A stretch of 32,000 nt of DNA. It comes from Isorropodon fossajaponicum endosymbiont JTNG4. Lineage in GTDB: Bacteria > Pseudomonadota > Gammaproteobacteria > PS1 > Pseudothioglobaceae. The notes under the pieces were generated by a model. It was given only the letters and a program-made list of their open reading frames with translations. It was not told the DNA's origin and did no database searches. The stretch lies in NCBI RefSeq assembly GCF_016592615.1, contig NZ_AP013043.1:30001-62000 (forward strand), written 5' to 3'. Positions within the stretch are counted from its first letter, which is position 1. Each line of letters opens with the position of its first letter. Below, piece by piece: positions 10,606 to 32,000 of the stretch. Position numbers and translations under genes: made by a program.

Positions 10606-11568
10606 ATGAAAAAAATAAAAATTGCCGTATTAATGGATGATATCAGCACTATTAATCCAAAAAAAGACTCCTCCTTAGCCATGATGTTAGAAGCATCAAA
10701 ACGAGGCTGGGAGATTTACACCTTTGATACTGCTGATTTGTTCGCTCAAGATGGTTCAGTATTTGCCGATTGTGCAAAAACCACAGTTAGAGATAATCTT
10801 GATCATTGGTTTGAAAAAGAAACCAATGTAGTCATGGTGCTTGATGAATTTGACGTTATTTTAATGCGCAAGGACCCGCCCTTTGATATGACCTATATTT
10901 ACAGCACTTATTTATTGGAGCAAGCTGAAAATAAAGGCGTATTAGTCGTTAATAAGCCCCAATCCTTGCGCGATGCCAATGAGAAATTATTTGCCCTTAA
11001 TTTCCCACATTGTATGCCCAAAACACTAGTCAGTGCTAACCAAAGCAAGATTAAAGCTTTTATCAAAACGCAAAATACTGCTGTCATTAAACCGCTTGAT
11101 GGCATGGGTGGGCGTGATATTTTCAAATTTGAAACGCATGATACAACCATAGATGCCGTATTAAAACGCCTAACAAACAACGGCAAGTGCCCAATCATGG
11201 CTCAAGCGTTTTTGCCCGATATTGACAAGGGTGACAAACGTATTTTGTTGATTAATGGCAAACCAGTCGATTATGCACTTGCTCGCATTCCTGCTAAGGG
11301 TAGTTTTAAAGGCAATCTTGCTGCTGGTGCTAAAGGTGTGGGACAGCCATTAAGTGATAGAGACAGATATCTATGCGAACAAATCACGCCCACACTTAAA
11401 GCCAAAGGCTTAATATTTGTTGGGCTAGACGTTATTGGTGATTACATTACTGAAATTAACGTTACTAGTCCGACTTGTATTCGCGAGCTAGATGCGCAAT
11501 TTAACCTTAATATCGTAGGTGAATTGTTTGACGTTATTGAACAAAAAATTAGCGCTAATCGCTACTAA
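10606..11568 (+). CDS. gshB: Glutathione synthetase
   Basis: IAVLMDDISTINPKKDSSLAMMLEA N-terminus and ATP-grasp C-terminal half, typical of GshB. 320 aa. Confidence 0.93.
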   Translation: MKKIKIAVLMDDISTINPKKDSSLAMMLEASKRGWEIYTFDTADLFAQDGSVFADCAKTTVRDNLDHWFEKETNVVMVLDEFDVILMRKDPPFDMTYIYSTYLLEQAENKGVLVVNKPQSLRDANEKLFALNFPHCMPKTLVSANQSKIKAFIKTQNTAVIKPLDGMGGRDIFKFETHDTTIDAVLKRLTNNGKCPIMAQAFLPDIDKGDKRILLINGKPVDYALARIPAKGSFKGNLAAGAKGVGQPLSDRDRYLCEQITPTLKAKGLIFVGLDVIGDYITEINVTSPTCIRELDAQFNLNIVGELFDVIEQKISANRY

Positions 11569-18835: not shown

Positions 18836-18864
18836 AATGTGTCCAAGTAGGTTAGAGCATTGCA

Positions 18865-20344
18865 ACCAGATGAAGAGCCGCATATTGTCTTTACAGGAAA
18901 AAGCACGCTTAATAATATCAACTTTCTTGATAATCAGAACAAGAAAAACATACTCAGTTGGAAAAATATAACAGGCAGTGGTATATATTTTTCATCTGTC
19001 GATAGAGTATTGCGTATATCAAAAGTCGATATTGATGAGTTAAATAGTCAGATTGTTTTTGATCAAAAATCTCAACTTAATTTGCAAACTGTGTTGATAC
19101 AGGGTGTTGATCAAGCAAATGAACAACAAAATGGCAAGCCGTTGTCTATTCATATTGATGCGATTGCGTTGAGTGATAATCAAGTGCAATTCTCAGATTT
19201 ATCCTTAATAGAGCCTTTTTATTCTTCCATTGATCATGTAAATGGTCAAATTATAAATTACTCAACAGAGCCAAATACCGTATTAAAGGTGGAGGTTGAA
19301 AGCAATGTCAACAAGAGTGGTTATTTTAAGATTTCGGGTCAGTTAAATCCTACAAAGCCGACATTAAGCACTGATATTCATGCAACTTTTCGCGATATCT
19401 CTACAGCCAATATAACCCCTTATACGATTAAATTTATTGGTCAAAAGATAAAATCTGGGAAGTTGAATGTGACATTTGATTATAAACTCAGAGACAACCT
19501 GATTGAAGGTAGCAATGGTATTCGCTTTGATAGAGTTAGCCTTGTGGAACCGATTGAAAGCCCAGAGGCAGTACAATTGCCTTTGTCCTTGGCTTTGGCA
19601 TTGTTGGAGGACAATCAAGGTCAAACGTTGATTGATTTACCAGTACGTGGAGATATTAATAATCTAGATTTTAGCTACGCACATTTAGTTTGGAAGGCGT
19701 TTGGCGGTGTTATTGCGGGTATTATTACTGCATCATTTAATTTTCTAGGTAAGTTGCTTGGCGCAGATGATGCGCAATTAGAGTTTATTGGCTTTGCTTT
19801 AGCAGACTCAAGACTTTTACAACAAGAACAAGAAAAATTACTCATCATAGCCAAGGCATTAAAAAAACGACCGTCATTATCTTTAGGTATCTACCCTGTT
19901 TATAATACTGTGTGTGATACACACGCATTACGTGAGAAAGAATTGGCCACATTGTTAGCTGGTAACAAACAAAAAATTATTAAAAAAAGCCGTGGAACAA
20001 GCCGCCAATTGCTTATAAAGTATTGAGATATACACATGAAAAACGTTTTGGCATTGAAGGCTCTCAGGAGCGCATAGCAGTCATTAATCGTACTCAGAGC
20101 ACAAACAAAACACGCACTCAGCAGATAAAGCACCTACAACTTGGTGATGAGCTGTGCCATAATATTATAATTGACCATATAAAGTTTTCAACACTTGCAT
20201 CACAAAAGAGCACAATCTATTTATCAGTTTTTATTAGGTCAAGATCTTAGTCCTAAACGCTTGGAACTACTTAAATTAAAAGAAGTAGAGGCGCAAGAAA
20301 ATAATTGGATAGAAAGTAAATTATCTTTAGATGCTTTGCGGTAA
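18865..20344 (+). pseudogene. 5'-truncated DUF748 / AsmA-like large envelope protein gene with a decayed 3' tail
   Basis: Reading begins at the IS boundary; the track's TTG start at 18860 lies inside IRR. The segment PLSLALALLEDNQGQTLIDLPVRGDINNLDFSYAHLVWKAFGGVIAGIITASFNFLGKLLG...LEFIGF is typical of the DUF748 C-terminal region, and such proteins are normally around 1000 aa. The same frame continues to TAA at 20342-20344 through five stops (at 20024, 20075, 20126, 20168, 20180). It ends with a family-like tail: RAQSIYQFLLGQDLSPKRLELL. Confidence 0.6.
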
Positions 20345-21432: not shown

Positions 21433-22986
21433 TTGCAGTTACAGGAAAAAATTCAACAACTAAAGCCGTATAGTGGGCTATTGAAGGGCAATTTAATGGG
21501 CCTAGAAAAAGAAGGGTTGCGTGTGTCAAGAAAAGGTGGTATTTCTCAAGCGCCACACCCTCAAACCTTTGGTTGTGCGTTGACACACCCTAATATCACT
21601 ACGGACTTTTCTGAGTCATTAATAGAATTGGTAACGCCACCACTTGGTAATGCGGTAGAAATGCTGTCTTTTTTAGAAGACACACAGCATTATTTGTATT
21701 ATCATTTGCCCAAGGATCAAAACTTTTGGTCGACAAGTATGCCTTGTGTTATTCGTGGTGAAACCACCATTCCCATTGCTCAATATGGTACTTCTAACCA
21801 AGGCATGATGAAAACAATTTATCGTCAAGGGCTGGCAAATCGTTACGGCAGTGTGATGCAGACCATTGCAGGCATCCATTTTAATTATTCGTTTTCCCAT
21901 GAGTTCTGGCGGCAATATCAAACATTGCTTGCTCCTACAGAGGTATTAAGGTCATTTATTGATAATGGCTATATGGGCTTAACCCGTAATATAGTGCGTT
22001 ATGGCTGGATAATTCCTTATTTATTCGGCGCATCGCCTGCTGTGTGTAAGTCGTTTTTGAAAGGCTACCATGCACATTCGTTGGTTGAGTTTAATGAGTC
22101 AACTTTGTATGAACCTTATGCCACCTCTTTACGTATGGGGGATATTGGCTATCAGAATTTGGCTGAGGATGAGGCAGGCGTGAAGGCCAATTACAATAGT
22201 TTGAGCCATTATATAAATAGCCTTAAAGCAGGCATGCAAACGGCTTGTTCTGAGTATGAAATGATTGGCTTAAAGCGCCACGGGAAATATCAGCAACTTA
22301 ATACCAATATTTTGCAGATTGAAAATGAATATTATGCTTCTGTACGTCCAAAACCACTGGTTGAACCAGATAAAAAACCCTTAGATACACTAAGTAGTAG
22401 TGGTATTGGCTATGTTGAGCTAAGATCAATAGATATCAATCCACTCTTGCCATTAGGTATCGACAAGGCACAAATTTATTTCTTAGAAGTTTTTATGTTG
22501 TTTTGTTTGCTTGAACCATCCTGCGCTATTTCTACCTCAGAACAGTTTGAGATTGATACTAATGATCAACTAGTTGCTCATGAGGGTCGCAAACCCAAAT
22601 TAATGCTAACGCATAGAGGCAAGCAGACTTCACTTCAAAAGTGGGGGGGTGATATTATGGCTAAGATTGAACAATGTGCAGCCTTACTAAGTGAAAGTCA
22701 CCAAGGGTCTGTTCGGGATATGGCACGTCGTATTAATAATCCAAATTTAACGCCTTCTGCGATAACACTTAGTCAGATGAAAGAGCACAATCAGGGATTT
22801 TTTGATTATACTAATTCGTTGTCTAAACAATATAGAAACGGTTTTTTATCTAGTACAATCAATCAAAAACACTTTGATTATTTGGATCAACAGGCAAAGA
22901 TTTCATGTAAAAAACAGCAACAGATTGAAGCCTCTGATTTAGTGGATTTTGATACATTTTTAGCTGAGTATTTTAAAAATATCTAA
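21433..22986 (+). CDS. gshA: Glutamate-cysteine ligase
   Basis: Colinear with E. coli GshA (LKG..RGLEKE.LRV, ITTDFSESLIELVTP, QYGTSN.G..KT.YR.GL.NRYG..MQTI.G.H.N.S). 517 aa, TTG start. Confidence 0.93.
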   Translation: MQLQEKIQQLKPYSGLLKGNLMGLEKEGLRVSRKGGISQAPHPQTFGCALTHPNITTDFSESLIELVTPPLGNAVEMLSFLEDTQHYLYYHLPKDQNFWSTSMPCVIRGETTIPIAQYGTSNQGMMKTIYRQGLANRYGSVMQTIAGIHFNYSFSHEFWRQYQTLLAPTEVLRSFIDNGYMGLTRNIVRYGWIIPYLFGASPAVCKSFLKGYHAHSLVEFNESTLYEPYATSLRMGDIGYQNLAEDEAGVKANYNSLSHYINSLKAGMQTACSEYEMIGLKRHGKYQQLNTNILQIENEYYASVRPKPLVEPDKKPLDTLSSSGIGYVELRSIDINPLLPLGIDKAQIYFLEVFMLFCLLEPSCAISTSEQFEIDTNDQLVAHEGRKPKLMLTHRGKQTSLQKWGGDIMAKIEQCAALLSESHQGSVRDMARRINNPNLTPSAITLSQMKEHNQGFFDYTNSLSKQYRNGFLSSTINQKHFDYLDQQAKISCKKQQQIEASDLVDFDTFLAEYFKNI

Positions 22987-22993
22987 AAAATTA

Positions 22994-24337
22994 ATGAACA
23001 GTAATGAAACAACAATTTGTGCATTGGCCAGTAGCGTTGGTAAAGGTGGTATTGGTGTGGTGCGTGTATCAGGGTCGTTATGTAAAGTGATTGCAAAAAA
23101 AATGCTTGGGCTTGTTCCCAAACCGCGTTATGCGCATTATGGTTTATTTTTTGACCAAGAAAATGATGAAATAGACAAAGGTATTGCTCTTTTTTTCCCT
23201 AAGCCGCACTCATTTACAGGTGAAGATGTATTGGAATTTCAAGGGCATGGCGGTATGAGTGTGATGCGTTGTTTATTAGAATCCGCCATATCGATGGGTG
23301 CTAAACCGGCCGAGCCAGGTGAATTTTCAAAACGTGCTTTTTTAAACGGAAAAATGGACTTGGTGCAAGCAGAAGCGGTGGCAGATATGATTGATGCTAA
23401 CTCAAAACGTGCTTCCAAGTCAGCATTTAGGTCTTTGTCAGGCGAGTTTTCCAATCAAGTGAATGCACTTACCAAGTCTATTATTGAGCTTCGAGTTTTT
23501 GTTGAAGCGACTATTGATTTTTCAGATGAGGAGGTTGATTTTTTACAATCTGAGCAAGTTAAACTTAAAACAAAAGGCATAAAACAAGCGGTTGAAACCA
23601 TTTTAAAATCTGCCACACAAGGTGTGATTTTACGAGAAGGTTTGAATGTTGCTATTGCTGGCAAGCCCAATGCTGGCAAGTCTTCATTACTAAATGCACT
23701 GACACAAGAATCCAGCGCTATTGTGACTGATATTGCAGGCACAACACGTGACGTGTTAAAAGAAACCATTCATGTAAATGGCATGCCACTTAATATTATT
23801 GATACAGCAGGTTTGCATGATAGTGACGACAAGATAGAAAAAGAAGGCATCAAAAGAGCGCATTTGGAGATTGAGCGTGCTGATGTGGTATTAATGGTGT
23901 TTGATGCGCAAGAAGACAAGCCAGATTTTTCCATATTGCCTAAAAATATGGATGATCGTTCTTTATTACTCATCAAAAATAAAGTGGATTTAACAAGTGG
24001 CGCTGTTAAAAGAGAAATGATTAACGATATTGTTCAATTGTCAGTGTCAGCTAAGCACTCAAAAGGTATGGGGCTGTTACGAAAAGAGCTGTCTGATATT
24101 GCAGGATTAGAAGATTTTTCAGAAGGGGTTGTGTTTGCCAGAAAACGTCATATTATTGCCCTAGAAGTATCATTAGCGTCTATTGAAAATGCCATTATGC
24201 AATTAGAAAATGGTGCAGTAGAGCTAATGGCTGAAGATTTACGCTTTGCTGGTCAGTCTATGGGTAGTATTACTGGTGAGTTTTCATCGGATGATTTACT
24301 AGGTGAAATATTTTCTTCTTTTTGTATTGGAAAATAA
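22994..24337 (+). CDS. mnmE: tRNA uridine-5-carboxymethylaminomethyl synthesis GTPase MnmE
   Basis: TICALAS..G.GGIGVVRVSG, G-domain GKPNAGKSSLLNAL...DTAG, and the C-terminal FCIGK motif. Confidence 0.95.
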   Translation: MNSNETTICALASSVGKGGIGVVRVSGSLCKVIAKKMLGLVPKPRYAHYGLFFDQENDEIDKGIALFFPKPHSFTGEDVLEFQGHGGMSVMRCLLESAISMGAKPAEPGEFSKRAFLNGKMDLVQAEAVADMIDANSKRASKSAFRSLSGEFSNQVNALTKSIIELRVFVEATIDFSDEEVDFLQSEQVKLKTKGIKQAVETILKSATQGVILREGLNVAIAGKPNAGKSSLLNALTQESSAIVTDIAGTTRDVLKETIHVNGMPLNIIDTAGLHDSDDKIEKEGIKRAHLEIERADVVLMVFDAQEDKPDFSILPKNMDDRSLLLIKNKVDLTSGAVKREMINDIVQLSVSAKHSKGMGLLRKELSDIAGLEDFSEGVVFARKRHIIALEVSLASIENAIMQLENGAVELMAEDLRFAGQSMGSITGEFSSDDLLGEIFSSFCIGK

Positions 24338-24369: not shown

Positions 24370-25854
24370 ATGAGTATTAGAATAAAATTCTACATTTACT
24401 TTTTGGTCACGATTTTGTTCTCGCCATTGCTAATGTATGAAGTGGTACTCGCTTATACAATGACTAATATCGTGGATGTGTTGCTGGTTGTCTTAATTCT
24501 GTTGGTTTATTTAGGTCTTTACTTGTCCATTCGTCAAGATTTTTTATCACCATTTAGTGATTTGCAAAGTTGGGTAGATAGCCATAAGTCTAGCCAAAGC
24601 GTGCGTTTAAGCGATTACCAAAGAACCACATTTCAACCTGTTGTAAAAGCGATTAATCATTTGATTGATGAAAATCAACATCTATATGATGACATGGAAA
24701 GCATCTTAAACAAGCAAATTCAGCGTTTAAGTAAAAAATCTGCCTCTTTAGAGACGCTATATAGCGTGTCATCAAAACTGAATAAAATGCATTCGATTGA
24801 TGAATTATTCTCGCACTTTTTAGATATTTTTATTAACATGACTGGCGCCTCATCAGGCGCTGCACGCAGTTTATCTGATGATGGTCAGCTTCACTTGATG
24901 GCAACACAAGGCGTTATTGACAAGCAGGGTCAGGTAGCAGATGTATTAAGTTCAGATTGTTTTTGTGGCGAAGTTGCTATGGCAAGTGACACTTATGTGC
25001 AATTTAGTGTACATACTTGTGCACAATGCGTGGGTAAGAAGTCTCAAGCCAAAGTCAGTGTTGGTACAATATTTATCCCACTTAGGTATCATGGAAAAAC
25101 ACTAGGCACTTTTAATTTATTTTTTGATACACTACCCTCACTGGCTTTTGATGAGCGTGCACTGCTCAGTTCTATTGCTGAAAATATCGCCATTGCACTA
25201 GATAAAGCTCGCCTAGATGCCCAAACTAAGCGCATGGAATTATCACAAGAGCGTTTGTTTTTATCACAAGAGATACATGATTCATTAGCCCAAACTATTT
25301 ACAGTTTAAAACTGCAAGTAACGGTACTTGGGAACATGCTTAAAGCAGGTAAAAAATCTGATGCAAGTGACAAAGTGTTGAGTTTACAATCTAATATTAC
25401 CCAGGCAAATCAAGAGTTACGTGAGTTGATGTGTAATTTTCGTGTGCCATTAGACCCTAAAGGGATTGAGACTTCTTTGACAAACTTACTCAATCGATTT
25501 ATGTCAGAAGAAGGCATTGCTACTTATTTACAAGTTGAGGGTAAACTACAAGTATCCCCAGAGGTGGAAATGCAAATCATGCGCATTACTCAAGAGGCAT
25601 TGTCTAATATACGTAAACACGCCAAAGCTCGCAATGTACGTGTTTTGCTTTTGGCAGAGCCTAATTGTCAATTACTGATTGAGGATGATGGCATTGGATT
25701 TGAAAAAGACCAAAATGAAAGTGAAGTAATGGGGAATAATATTGGCATGAATATTATGAAAGAACGAGCAACAAGAATTGGTGCCAGCATTGAAATTGAA
25801 TCAGAAGTCGATGAAGGTACACGCGTTATTGTCAACTTTCCGAAACTACCATGA
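24370..25854 (+). CDS. NarX/NarQ-family sensor histidine kinase (HAMP-like, Cys-cluster GAF-like module, HisKA_3, HATPase) lacking a periplasmic domain
   Basis: Two hydrophobic helices (IKFYIYFLVTILFSPLLMYEVVLAY and IVDVLLVVLILLVYLGLYLSI) are separated by about 4 residues. Cys cluster is DCFCGEVA...HTCAQCVG. H-box is SQEIHDSLAQTIYSLKLQV. N-box is EALSNIRKHA. G-boxes are DDGIGF and GMNIMKERA. ATG at 24370 is preferred over the TTG at 24322, which overlaps mnmE. Confidence 0.85.
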   Translation: MSIRIKFYIYFLVTILFSPLLMYEVVLAYTMTNIVDVLLVVLILLVYLGLYLSIRQDFLSPFSDLQSWVDSHKSSQSVRLSDYQRTTFQPVVKAINHLIDENQHLYDDMESILNKQIQRLSKKSASLETLYSVSSKLNKMHSIDELFSHFLDIFINMTGASSGAARSLSDDGQLHLMATQGVIDKQGQVADVLSSDCFCGEVAMASDTYVQFSVHTCAQCVGKKSQAKVSVGTIFIPLRYHGKTLGTFNLFFDTLPSLAFDERALLSSIAENIAIALDKARLDAQTKRMELSQERLFLSQEIHDSLAQTIYSLKLQVTVLGNMLKAGKKSDASDKVLSLQSNITQANQELRELMCNFRVPLDPKGIETSLTNLLNRFMSEEGIATYLQVEGKLQVSPEVEMQIMRITQEALSNIRKHAKARNVRVLLLAEPNCQLLIEDDGIGFEKDQNESEVMGNNIGMNIMKERATRIGASIEIESEVDEGTRVIVNFPKLP

Positions 25855-26480
25855 AAATCTATATCATTGACGACCACGCTTTGTTTCGTAACGGACTCAT
25901 TGCCTTATTAGAATCTAAACAAATTAGCGCCAGTGCCGCTGCTTCGCCAGAACAAGGTTTGGCAGAAATTCCTTCCTTGTCAGTGGATATTATTCTACTA
26001 GATTTACGTATGCCACAAATGTCTGGACTTGAAGTGTTAAAAACGCTCAAAGAAAAAAACATCACCACACCAATTGTGATGCTAACCACCAGCACCCAAG
26101 AACATGATTTACGTAATTGTCTTAAACATGGTGCCCAAGGTTACTTATTAAAGGATATGGATCCAGATGAGTTGGTTGATGCTTTAGATGAAGTTGTTGA
26201 AGGCTCAATTGTTGTTGCACAAGATATGACACACGTACTAGCAAAGGCTCTACGAGATGAATTAACCGATAATGAACCTTCGTTTAACGCCTTAACCAGC
26301 CGAGAAAAAGAAGTGGCCTGTCAAGTATCCAGCGGTTATAGTAATAAAGTCATTGCTAGGGAACTGGGCATCTCTGATGGCACAGTTAAACTTCATGTTA
26401 AATCAATTCTTAAAAAATTATCACTCAGCTCACGCGTTGAAGTGGCAGTCATGGTGACACGAAAAGGCTATTGCAAATAA
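25851..26480 (+). CDS. NarL/FixJ-family response regulator (receiver plus LuxR-type HTH)
   Basis: IIDDH, LLDLRMP and GYLLKDMDPDELVDAL, then LTSREKEV...NKVIARELGISDGTVKLHVKSILKKL. Closely parallels E. coli NarL. ATGA overlap with the kinase gene. Confidence 0.9.
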   Translation: MKIYIIDDHALFRNGLIALLESKQISASAAASPEQGLAEIPSLSVDIILLDLRMPQMSGLEVLKTLKEKNITTPIVMLTTSTQEHDLRNCLKHGAQGYLLKDMDPDELVDALDEVVEGSIVVAQDMTHVLAKALRDELTDNEPSFNALTSREKEVACQVSSGYSNKVIARELGISDGTVKLHVKSILKKLSLSSRVEVAVMVTRKGYCK

Positions 26481-26485
26481 AGCCA

Positions 26486-26965
26486 ATGGATGGATATCAA
26501 AAACTAGTAGCACAGGCATTAACAACAGTAGGTGAAGTGTTTCCATGGGATTTGGAAGAAGAGATTAAGCACAACGTTGATTTAATATTACTAGATATTC
26601 GCGAGCAAGATGAATTTGACATGATGCACATTAAGCATTCAATTCATGTTCCTAGAGGCGTGCTTGAGGGCGCTTGTGTTTGGAATTATGATGACACTGT
26701 GCCCAAATTAGCACAAGCAAGAGGGCAAAATATTGTTGTAATTTGCCGCTTAGGCAATCGTAGCGCACTTGCAGCCTTTACTATGCAACAAATGGGCTTT
26801 ACCAAAATGCGCTCATTAAAAATGGGTATCAAGGGCTGGAATGATAATGATTTTGAAATGGTGAATGTCAATCATACAATTGTTGATATTGACCAAGCCG
26901 ATAAATGGCTTAATAGAACGGTTTCAGAAGATAAATTAACGCCTTATAAAAATAATGTTAATTAA
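26486..26965 (+). CDS. Single-domain rhodanese-like sulfurtransferase
   Basis: LLDIREQDEF...HI..SIHVPRG and the active-site loop CRLGNRS. ATG lies 5 nt after the regulator's stop. An alternative TTG at 26471 would overlap the regulator gene. Confidence 0.8.
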   Translation: MDGYQKLVAQALTTVGEVFPWDLEEEIKHNVDLILLDIREQDEFDMMHIKHSIHVPRGVLEGACVWNYDDTVPKLAQARGQNIVVICRLGNRSALAAFTMQQMGFTKMRSLKMGIKGWNDNDFEMVNVNHTIVDIDQADKWLNRTVSEDKLTPYKNNVN

Positions 26966-27072: not shown

Positions 27073-27100
27073 TTGACAGGTTATCAGTTAGCTGTATAAT
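27073..27100 (+). promoter_or_regulatory. Consensus sigma70 rrn promoter with an A/T-rich UP-like region
   Basis: TTGACA (27073-27078), 16 nt, TATAAT (27095-27100). Preceded by aaaataaaagtttaaaataa. About 210 nt upstream of the 16S. Confidence 0.7.
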
Positions 27101-27307: not shown

Positions 27308-28852
<1,545 letters not shown>

Positions 28853-29011
28853 AGAAAAGTATGAGTGTCCACAACAAGTTGTTTGATGACTATAAAGATA
28901 AGAAGAATCACATTACACTTTTGCGTGATAACTTTTATAGTGATTACGTAGGATATTTTTTATTATTCAAGGCATTTTTTGAGCGAAGGTAGAAGTGTAG
29001 TAGTAGCTGTA

Positions 29012-29030
29012 TGACTGACTGACTGACTGA
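29012..29030. repeat. (TGAC)4 tetranucleotide microsatellite in the 16S-tRNA spacer
   Basis: tgactgactgactgactga, read directly from the sequence. Confidence 0.8.
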
Positions 29031-29071
29031 AGAAAACAACGTAGAAAGATAAAAAATAAACCAGTAATTTT

Positions 29072-29148
<77 letters not shown>

Positions 29149-29172
29149 AATTTTATTTTTTATGCTGTTTTA

Positions 29173-29248
29173 GGGGTCATAGCTCAGCTGGGAGAGCGCT
29201 TGCCTTGCACGCAAGAGGTCGGGAGTTCGATCCTCCCTGGCTCCACCA
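29173..29248 (+). tRNA. tRNA-Ala (anticodon TGC)
   Basis: GGGGTCATAGCTCAGCTGGGAGAGCGCTTGCCTTGCACGCAAGAGGTCGGGAGTTCGATCCTCCCTGGCTCCACCA. The G3:U70 identity pair is present. Confidence 0.95.
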
Positions 29249-29314
29249 AATATTCTTTTATTTAAAAACTTAAACAAGACAATTTTTAATCGTTGCTTCG
29301 TTTAAGTTTTTATA

Positions 29315-29344
29315 CCACGCCTTCGGGCGTGGAGCTCTTTAACA
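29315..29344 (+). promoter_or_regulatory. Spacer boxB-like hairpin plus boxA
   Basis: ccacgcc-ttcg-ggcgtgg hairpin (29315-29332), immediately followed by GCTCTTTAACAA (29333-29344). Confidence 0.55.
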
Positions 29345-29716
29345 ATTTAATACATGAAGTAAAGTTTGTAAATATACAATATAACAACGCGAAGACTGTT
29401 GTGATGACAGTTTTCATTGGTGTATTGCATTGACACAACAATTTCAAAAAATATGGATTCTCATCAGCGGTGTCAAAACCGCTGGTGAAATAAGAAAGAA
29501 AGAATTCACCGATTGTGATTTATTACAATTTGTGACTTCTTGGTGAAATACTAAGAAGTATGACACTAAACTTGAGTGATTTCAGATTTTGTCTTTGACA
29601 AAGCGTTTTATTGACGATTGAAGGAGTTTAGCCTTGCTAAATAACTGATTGAGAAAATAAAACAACACAGACAAAGGGGAAATATGGAAACACATCTAGA
29701 TGGTTTGGGGTTATAT

Positions 29717-32000
<2,284 letters not shown>

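Follow-up and report, generated by a model that had tools for sequence, protein, structure and literature searches.

The window analysed here is a stretch of 32,000 nucleotides (nt) from contig NZ_AP013043.1 (positions 30,001 to 62,000, forward strand) of the Isorropodon fossajaponicum endosymbiont JTNG4. It encodes a sensor histidine kinase, followed by a NarL-like response regulator and a rhodanese, which we refer to together as the triad. By sequence comparison, the kinase belongs to the NarX lineage but lacks the feature that defines nitrate-sensing kinases, the periplasmic four-helix P-box domain, which is the only nitrate-specific element of these proteins (PMC8199190). Judged from gene order in related genomes, the triad is a conserved, translationally coupled unit of sulfur-oxidising Gammaproteobacteria. 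Its features are as follows:

24370..25854, + strand: sensor histidine kinase of the NarX lineage without periplasmic domain, 494 amino acids (aa) (open reading frame (ORF), Pfam, identity to BBB23421.1)
24376..24531, + strand: transmembrane (TM) hairpin of the kinase, with a helix at residues 3-31, a turn at T32-N33 and a helix at residues 34-54 (hydropathy, AlphaFold2, conservation in the family)
24532..24786, + strand: HAMP-like linker (residues 55-112, with the conserved D57-F58-x2-P61) and signalling helix (residues 113-139) (NarX alignment, AlphaFold2)
24790..25203, + strand: GAF domain, residues 141-278 (Pfam GAF_2, E 5.8e-10; AlphaFold2; Foldseek)
24958..25029, + strand: cysteine cluster C197-x-C199-x17-C217-x2-C220 within the GAF domain (invariant in 106 homologues of the SUP05 clade)
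25249..25845, + strand: transmitter, composed of a HisKA_3 DHp domain (residues 294-360) and a HATPase_c domain (residues 400-492) (Pfam)
25851..26480, + strand: NarL-like response regulator, 209 aa, with receiver D51 and a GerE/LuxR helix-turn-helix (Pfam Response_reg and GerE)
26471..26965, + strand: single-domain cytoplasmic rhodanese (Pfam Rhodanese, E 5e-17)
26744-26764: active-site loop of the rhodanese, C92-RLGNRS; its second conserved cysteine, Cys69, lies at 26675-26677

The kinase gene is complete

The kinase ORF runs from an ATG at 24370 to the stop codon at 25852-25854 (494 codons), and its product is identical to BBB23421.1 from the symbiont of the vesicomyid clam Isorropodon fossajaponicum. 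The 90% identity cluster of this protein includes sequences of Ruthia magnifica and the Abyssogena symbiont. An in-frame TTG at 24322 was rejected as start codon because of its overlap with the stop codon of mnmE (24335-24337) and because the homologues all begin with M-x-I-K-x-K-F-Y. RefSeq places the start at Met31 (WP_225879279.1, 464 aa), whereby TM1 (window 24370-24462) is lost. This start looks wrong and was rejected as well, since residues 1-30 are conserved and form TM1, and the 494-aa GenBank protein matches the conserved N-terminus. A scan for promoters and terminators around the operon yielded nothing convincing upstream of the kinase, because only 32 nt separate it from mnmE.

Within the SUP05 clade, 106 full-length homologues (470-520 aa, down to 43% identity) were collected from the Ruthia and Vesicomyosocius symbionts, Bathymodiolus symbionts and free-living Thioglobus. 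The N-terminus, the hairpin and all four cysteines are kept in every one of them (106/106), and according to Pfam the catalytic motifs of the window kinase are all intact. The reduced symbiont genome and the shorter RefSeq product might suggest that the gene is a decaying, N-terminally truncated remnant of a full-length NarX. However, length and architecture are the same in the 106 homologues, including those of free-living Thioglobus, and both recur when sequences are clustered at 50% identity, where dozens of representatives show them. A truncated pseudogene, against which the initial annotation of this locus had warned, is thus ruled out by conservation across homologues, and we regard the probability of a decaying remnant as negligible.

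Membrane hairpin, HAMP region and transmitter

In a Kyte-Doolittle hydropathy plot, residues 1-60 hold two adjoining hydrophobic stretches. The AlphaFold2 model of the kinase, built from 58 diverse homologues as input (mean predicted local distance difference test score, pLDDT, 76.8), shows a helix at residues 3-31, a two-residue break at T32-N33, a helix at 34-74, a loop at 75-88, a helix at 89-139 and an alpha/beta GAF core at 143-258; a long helix (260-325) then enters the DHp domain and is followed by a helix at 329-357 and the catalytic domain. The exposed loop between the TM helices spans two residues in the model and at most 13 if the flanking charges are counted (E24-D36), and with 13 or fewer residues outside the membrane an extracytoplasmic domain is impossible. 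The hairpin has basic residues on either side (R4 and K6 ahead of TM1, R55 behind TM2), and the prediction, based on hydropathy and AlphaFold2, would fit a topology with both termini in the cytoplasm.

The Pfam scan recognised GAF_2, HisKA_3 and HATPase_c over the residues given above and found no PilJ/NarX sensor domain at E<=0.1; as a control, the same scan of E. coli NarX returned PilJ (35-130), HAMP, HisKA_3 and HATPase_c. These results bear out the initial annotation, which had described two hydrophobic helices joined by a tiny linker without an extracytoplasmic ligand site, and the domain scan that it had proposed gave all expected domains except HAMP. Pfam recognises HAMP in many family members and gave no match in the window kinase. 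That a HAMP region directly after TM2 and a signalling helix are present there is indicated by the NarX alignment, the helix-loop-helix of the AlphaFold2 model and the Pfam matches of relatives. In the transmitter, the phospho-acceptor His303 (25276-25278) lies in the H-box EIHDSLAQ and is invariant in all relatives.

The short-loop hairpin is common across the kinase family, but its TM sequence is poorly conserved. Two soluble variants (loci L056 and L078), both located in the middle of their contigs, are devoid of the TM hairpin and of the first HAMP helix, yet keep C199, C217 and the rhodanese, which points to a cytoplasmic input via the GAF domain. These soluble kinases, from metagenome-assembled genomes labelled Piscirickettsiaceae, measure 450-461 aa. 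The conclusion initially drawn from the short linker, namely that the input must be membrane-embedded or cytoplasmic, follows from the missing periplasmic domain, and the Cys-bearing GAF domain is a reasonable candidate for it.

Position within the NarX lineage

In a BLASTP comparison, residues 30-490 of the kinase align with residues 145-583 of E. coli NarX, that is from TM2 to the C-terminus, at 23% identity (E 5e-26), with the conserved HAMP proline P61 and the CAQC/CQLC motifs in register. The best NCBIfam models for the kinase are NarQ (152.6 bits, cut-off 553) and NarX (118.5 bits, cut-off 578), so both equivalog cut-offs are missed by far. The initial assignment to the NarX/NarQ family therefore stands for the homologous part from TM2 to the C-terminus and for the closest models, but does not extend to the sensor domain, which is missing, or to equivalence with either protein.

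An exhaustive profile search covered 1.84 billion representative proteins. Among the best 90 or so representatives (above about 420 bits), most are 440-580 aa long and have a short-loop hairpin or no TM segment; P0340 and P0391 are exceptions with long loops. P0340 (678 aa, 612 bits) has an inter-TM loop of 137 residues without a PilJ match and carries a cysteine at the C197 column only; it may be an intermediate form or have a periplasmic domain of another type. The next group after the family, below about 410 bits, consists of proteins of 626-669 aa with inter-TM loops of 131-173 residues. Six of the seven tested have significant PilJ matches together with HAMP, GAF, HisKA_3 and HATPase_c, and the PilJ match of the seventh (P0454) is sub-threshold. 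These PilJ-bearing NarX-type relatives also carry cysteines at the C197 and C199 columns. Since PilJ-type NarX kinases are the nearest proteins outside the family and have the C-x-C of the GAF domain in common with it, we place the kinase in the NarX lineage. In the NarX alignment and homologue survey suggested at the outset, the best-scoring group thus mostly has a short-loop hairpin or no TM segment, and the periplasmic domain is present in most of the tested proteins of the next-nearest group. For a few kinase homologues the databases list PF26769, which is absent from the Pfam copy used.

The GAF domain and its cysteines

Modelled on its own, the GAF domain reached a pLDDT of 83, and Foldseek matched it to the GAF domains of PtsP, phytochromes, the free methionine sulfoxide reductase fRMsr and DevS GAF-B. 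A structure prediction of the Cys-bearing module had been recommended, and it gives a GAF fold. The cluster reads D-C197-F-C199...C217-A-Q-C220, with the cysteines where the initial annotation had placed them; E. coli NarX reads TCQPDMTCDDKGCQLC, and its CQLC is aligned with the CAQC of the kinase.

Beyond the SUP05 clade the cluster is less uniform. In 79 kinase loci taken from species-representative genomes (19 from the SUP05 clade, 60 others), all four cysteines occur in 19, exclusively in the SUP05 clade. Three cysteines are kept in 43 loci (CCCx at C197, C199, C217 and C220), and two in a further eight (CYCx), where the triad and its linkage to dsr genes are still present; the pattern is different or degenerate in the remaining nine. 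C197 and C217 are both present in 70 of the 79 loci, and C220 in none of the 60 non-SUP05 loci. Conservation of the cysteines in orthologues, as initially expected, therefore holds for all four within the 106 SUP05-clade homologues, but the four-Cys arrangement is limited to that clade. By this comparison the fourth cysteine is a feature of the SUP05 clade and not of the family, which weighs against a four-Cys metal cluster as the shared mechanism.

The fRMsr Ta0848 is a weak sequence match to the GAF domain (E 0.01, about 17% identity). In this weak alignment, C199 falls on Cys60 of Ta0848, and C217/C220 lie 3-6 residues from Cys84 in the same loop. Both Cys60 and Cys84 of Ta0848 are required for catalysis, Cys84 being the nucleophile (PMC6211008). 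By this alignment, the cysteines of the kinase are located where a GAF fold is known to carry out thiol chemistry, which makes such chemistry plausible for the kinase.

A conserved unit of kinase, regulator and rhodanese

The start codon of the regulator overlaps the stop codon of the kinase (ATGA). With 45% identity to E. coli NarL and 224 bits against the NarL model (cut-off 250), the regulator is as NarL-like as the initial annotation had it. The true start of the rhodanese is likely the ATG at 26486, 5 nt past the stop of the regulator, judging from homologues that start at MDGYQ; depending on the start, the protein has 159-164 aa. Inspection by eye revealed neither a signal peptide nor a TM segment in it. 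The six-residue active-site loop is of the sulfurtransferase type (consensus CRSG[NYK]RS across 52 loci), and this loop, C69 and the PWD, MHI and PRG motifs are at least 90% conserved in these loci. The best solved relatives are the uncharacterised rhodanese 6mxv and, more distantly, the polysulfide-sulfur transferase Sud of Wolinella.

Downstream of the 79 kinases, the regulator was found in 73 loci and the rhodanese in 56. The window displays all the traits by which we delimit the triad family, namely a TM region that is absent or has a short loop, a GAF domain with C197 and C217, an adjoining NarL-like regulator, and a rhodanese with CRxGxRS. A SUP05-type kinase with four cysteines and 73% identity (L019, 8001-9491) differs from the other SUP05-clade loci in that neither regulator nor rhodanese was detected within 8 kb downstream.

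Gene neighbourhood and linkage to dsr genes

In the SUP05 clade, the triad is always preceded by a conserved gene for a 307-aa protein (minus strand), gshA and mnmE, in this order; in the window, the rhodanese is followed by an rRNA operon. The 60 non-SUP05 loci stem from Thioalkalispiraceae, Ectothiorhodospiraceae, Chromatiaceae, Sedimenticola, bivalve symbionts, Leucothrix, Cocleimonas, Arenicellales and others. The following genes recur upstream of the kinase on the same strand in these loci:

DsrK: NCBIfam, 470 bits (cut-off 400)
DsrL-like: NCBIfam, 731 bits (cut-off 516)
DsrJ: NCBIfam, 49 bits, below the cut-off of 100
DsrO: NCBIfam, 332 bits (cut-off 200)
DsrP: NCBIfam, 70 bits, below the cut-off of 350
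DsrN: cobyrinate a,c-diamide synthase family, assigned by family, size and gene order
DsrR: IscA-like, assigned by family, size and gene order

In at least 38 of the 58 non-SUP05 loci with enough upstream sequence, the gene immediately before the kinase is dsrN or dsrR, often with a gap of 9-60 nt. Because of these short gaps, the triad can be counted as the last part of the dsr (reverse dissimilatory sulfite reductase) operon in these relatives, and this is the place where it is met most often among them. All association counts for the loci are raw numbers that ignore kinship. For the SUP05/clam-symbiont clade, the best explanation is that the triad has moved to its place between mnmE and the rRNA operon.

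Further genes of sulfur metabolism are found close by. In locus L082 (13108-15856), the siroheme synthase gene cysG (minus strand) and a rhodanese-TusA-DsrE2 cluster directly follow the triad; such clusters form a cytoplasmic sulfur relay that feeds rDsr. Genes resembling cysG occur downstream of the triad in six loci and TusA in four. In L078, which is labelled Piscirickettsiaceae, two NIR_SIR ORFs of DsrA/DsrB size lie divergently about 2.5 kb upstream of the soluble kinase, and the upstream ORFs of L056 (1-4806) match this pair in size and orientation alone. A Cas6-family ORF (188 bits) was seen between the NIR_SIR ORFs and the kinase of L078 (2829-7364).

In 11 loci of Chromatiaceae type, an ABC exporter of the Atm1/ABCB7 type is located upstream, with ABCB7 and Atm1 as best solved relatives (E about 1e-170). 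Exporters of the Atm1 type handle glutathione-linked sulfur or metal species, and the exporter may be functionally connected to the triad. Counting both sides, such an exporter (matching NaAtm1) and a small S24-peptidase-like gene adjoin the triad in 20 loci, for example L022 (11454-13277, minus strand) and L082 (6706-8526, plus strand). The two genes stand upstream in Chromatiaceae and downstream in dsr-linked loci.

Proposed signal and competing explanations

For the signal, the role of the rhodanese in sulfur transfer and the regulon, we infer a scheme to which we give about an even chance: the kinase would be a cytoplasmic, cysteine-based sensor of sulfur or thiol redox state that controls sulfur oxidation. 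A bare TM hairpin has taken the place of the periplasmic nitrate-binding four-helix domain of the NarX lineage, and the HAMP region, the signalling helix, the GAF domain with its cysteines and the HisKA_3/HATPase transmitter are retained. Co-transcribed with the kinase and the NarL-like regulator, the rhodanese, which is of catalytic type, would bind sulfane sulfur in the form of a Cys92 persulfide. This sulfur could be passed to, or equilibrated with, C197, C199 and C217 of the GAF domain (and C220 in the SUP05 clade). The persulfide, disulfide or polysulfide bridge formed in this way might alter the conformation of the domain, the helix leading from GAF to DHp would then shift the balance of kinase and phosphatase activity, and the regulator would adjust sulfur-oxidation genes, with dsr as the prime candidate. 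A bolder version, which we hold possible but doubtful, makes the triad the long-sought dedicated regulator of rDsr: the rhodanese would load sulfane sulfur onto the NarX-derived GAF domain, the kinase would read the cytoplasmic persulfide pool, and the Cys module of canonical NarX would be a second, internal input for sulfur or redox state.

Several observations weigh against sulfur sensing by the GAF cysteines. In about a quarter of the loci with room downstream, the cysteines are kept and the rhodanese is missing. The link to dsr rests on relatives of 30-37% identity, and neither the window nor the SUP05 clade has dsr genes next to the triad. The C-x-C motif also occurs in canonical periplasmic NarX-type kinases and may have a structural or general role. 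The conservation of HAMP suggests that the TM hairpin may still pass a signal. Many of the host organisms couple sulfur oxidation to nitrate reduction, so that a nitrogen-oxide input is possible. Finally, loss of the C197/C217 pair is associated with absence of the rhodanese (4 of 7 loci without the pair lack it, 11 of 57 with the pair; Fisher p = 0.047, uncorrected for phylogeny), but this association is weak and was not used as evidence.

In our ranking, the proposed sulfur or thiol sensing accounts for more of the context than each of four competing explanations. The hairpin could serve merely as a tether, and the GAF cysteines could be switched by the quinone pool or by general thiol redox state, with the kinase reporting electron-transport status as ArcB does and the rhodanese being an accessory thiol reductant or unrelated. 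A short-loop hairpin combined with a cytoplasmic Cys-bearing sensor domain is indeed the layout of ArcB, whose PAS domain carries Cys180 and Cys241; the poorly conserved hairpin sequence would also agree with a tether, and the cysteine positions are compatible with a disulfide switch. Membrane quinone sensing is hard to square with TM-free soluble members that keep cysteines and rhodanese, though, and it does not explain why the kinase is so closely and consistently linked to a sulfurtransferase and to dsr genes; we rate this explanation as unlikely. Less likely still is a site in which the four cysteines ligate [4Fe-4S], [2Fe-2S] or Zn, either as a sensor of O2 or NO like the PAS domain of NreB or as a structural Zn site. 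It would account for the four invariant cysteines of the 106 homologues and for the CxxC common to the kinase and E. coli NarX, and both the IscA-like dsrR and the Atm1-type exporter neighbour the triad in relatives. However, the fourth cysteine is missing from all 60 non-SUP05 loci, and the eight loci with C-Y-C retain the triad and the dsr linkage; a four-Cys site is therefore not the common mechanism of the family.

Nitrate was considered as well, bound in the cell by the GAF domain, with the pair controlling nitrogen-oxide metabolism. NarX/NarQ and NarL are the closest characterised relatives, many hosts respire nitrate with sulfur, and a nitrate-binding GAF protein has a precedent in NreA of staphylococci (PMC9918477). 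On the other side, the kinase family occurs throughout the purple sulfur bacteria (Thiocystis, Thiocapsa, Allochromatium palmeri, Marichromatium, Thermochromatium and others). The genome of Allochromatium vinosum has no genes for dissimilatory or assimilatory nitrate reduction, yet "NarX and NarL" are annotated as Alvin_1057/1058 (PMC3368242), which, judging from the A. palmeri orthologue, probably belong to the kinase family. Ruthia magnifica has lost narGHJI (PMC2642828) and still retains the kinase. In addition, dsr genes recur beside the triad in the 79 loci, whereas no nar, nir or nas genes do. The genomic context, which is the strongest clue and was not considered in the initial annotation, thus points away from nitrate, and we judge a cytoplasmic nitrate or nitrite sensor to be distinctly improbable. 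Slightly more improbable yet is intramembrane or partner sensing, in which the Atm1-type exporter or DsrMKJOP would signal through hairpin and HAMP, as ABC transporters do with BceS-type kinases. Such a role would suit the two-TM, short-loop N-terminus followed by a conserved HAMP and the recurrence of an Atm1-type ABC exporter beside the triad, but the TM sequences are poorly conserved, soluble variants exist, the SUP05 clade has no such exporter beside the triad, and classical intramembrane-sensing kinases have no cytoplasmic GAF domain.

Comparison with known systems

NarX/NarQ kinases, above all non-enterobacterial ones of the PilJ type, resemble the window kinase in their HAMP, signalling helix, GAF-like module, C-x-C, HisKA_3 H-box, CA domain and NarL-type partner; the CxxC of NarX has a counterpart in this family in the SUP05 clade only. 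The window kinase differs in that the periplasmic four-helix P-box domain is absent and the GAF domain is of full size and recognisable by Pfam, and its system has the rhodanese as third gene and a genomic link to dsr instead of nar. With ArcB, as it is generally described, the kinase has in common a TM hairpin anchor with a very short external loop and a cytoplasmic sensor domain with cysteines, which are redox-active in ArcB and may be so here. The likeness is one of layout. ArcB belongs to the tripartite hybrid kinases of HisKA type, uses a PAS domain and has no rhodanese partner. Like BceS and LiaS, the kinase has two N-terminal TM helices with a loop of under about 25 residues, but HAMP, signalling helix and a GAF domain of 140 residues lie between TM2 and DHp.

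NreB/NreC likewise pairs a HisKA_3 kinase without extracellular sensor, but with a cytoplasmic sensor domain for a small molecule or redox state, with a NarL/LuxR-type regulator. NreBC of Bacillus licheniformis is sulfide-responsive and activates sulfide-oxidation genes (PMC9918477). NreB is soluble and uses a PAS domain (with Fe-S in staphylococci, possibly heme-based in B. licheniformis), whereas the window kinase is membrane-anchored, has HAMP and GAF, and has a rhodanese partner. The four cysteines in a PAS domain that mark the NreB type are not found, as the domain is a GAF and the wider family has three or two cysteines. The likeness to fRMsr, a catalytic GAF protein of the same fold, consists in C199 on Cys60 and C217/C220 in the loop of the nucleophile Cys84 (a weak match, as given above); fRMsr is a stand-alone enzyme, and we propose no enzymatic role for the GAF domain of the kinase. 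The proposed logic is like that of CstR, SqrR, BigR, FisR and sHdrR/SoxR, where sulfane sulfur is sensed by persulfidation or polysulfide bridging of cysteines and genes of sulfur oxidation are regulated accordingly (PMC12423496, PMC9918477). All of these are one-component DNA-binding proteins, whereas the triad would combine a two-component kinase with a dedicated sulfurtransferase.

Significance

To our knowledge, it is not known how sulfur oxidisers switch on their dsr genes. The regulators of sulfur oxidation in the literature searched are one-component repressors and a few unrelated two-component systems (Acidithiobacillus, Bacillus). In the full texts searched, which included few papers from subscription journals, two-component systems at the distal end of dsr operons were nowhere mentioned, and functional studies of such a system, of Alvin_1056 to Alvin_1059 or of NarX/NarL in SUP05 were not found. 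The triad is a concrete and widely conserved candidate for dsr control. Its range comprises the globally important marine clade SUP05, symbionts of clams, mussels and other bivalves, the Chromatiaceae and, among these, probably the tractable model Allochromatium vinosum. Going by sequence, the triad would be a two-component system that derives from NarX, receives a different input from inside the cell and has a sulfurtransferase as third component. Database entries name these genes NarX/NarQ or "GAF domain-containing sensor histidine kinase". A label such as "nitrate/nitrite sensor NarX" is probably mistaken and could lead astray those who reconstruct the metabolism of sulfur oxidisers.

We know of no established role for the Cys module of NarX. 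The kinase family offers a natural dissection of that protein, in which the cytoplasmic Cys/GAF module can be studied alone, without the periplasmic sensor. The kinase is retained in clam-symbiont genomes of about 1.0-1.5 Mb that are poor in signalling genes, and the triad is among the very few signalling systems kept there, which implies that the symbiont still needs to sense something. This retention is all the more notable because the signal transduction category of these genomes was counted as a single gene (PMC2642828).

Other features of the window

Two genes of glutathione synthesis are present at 10606-11568 and 21433-22986, gshB (NCBIfam glutathione synthase) and a gshA-like ORF (assigned by eye). 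In every locus of the SUP05 clade, the latter is the second gene ahead of the kinase, which may be a coincidence. For an ORF of 388 aa with a TTG start (18860-20026), no NCBIfam match was obtained at E<=1e-10. The rRNA operon (27308-32000) starts straight after the rhodanese gene and comprises 16S rRNA, two tRNAs and 23S rRNA. About 200 nt 5' of the 16S rRNA, at 27073-27100, lies a perfect sigma-70 consensus promoter (12/12, TTGACA-16-TATAAT).

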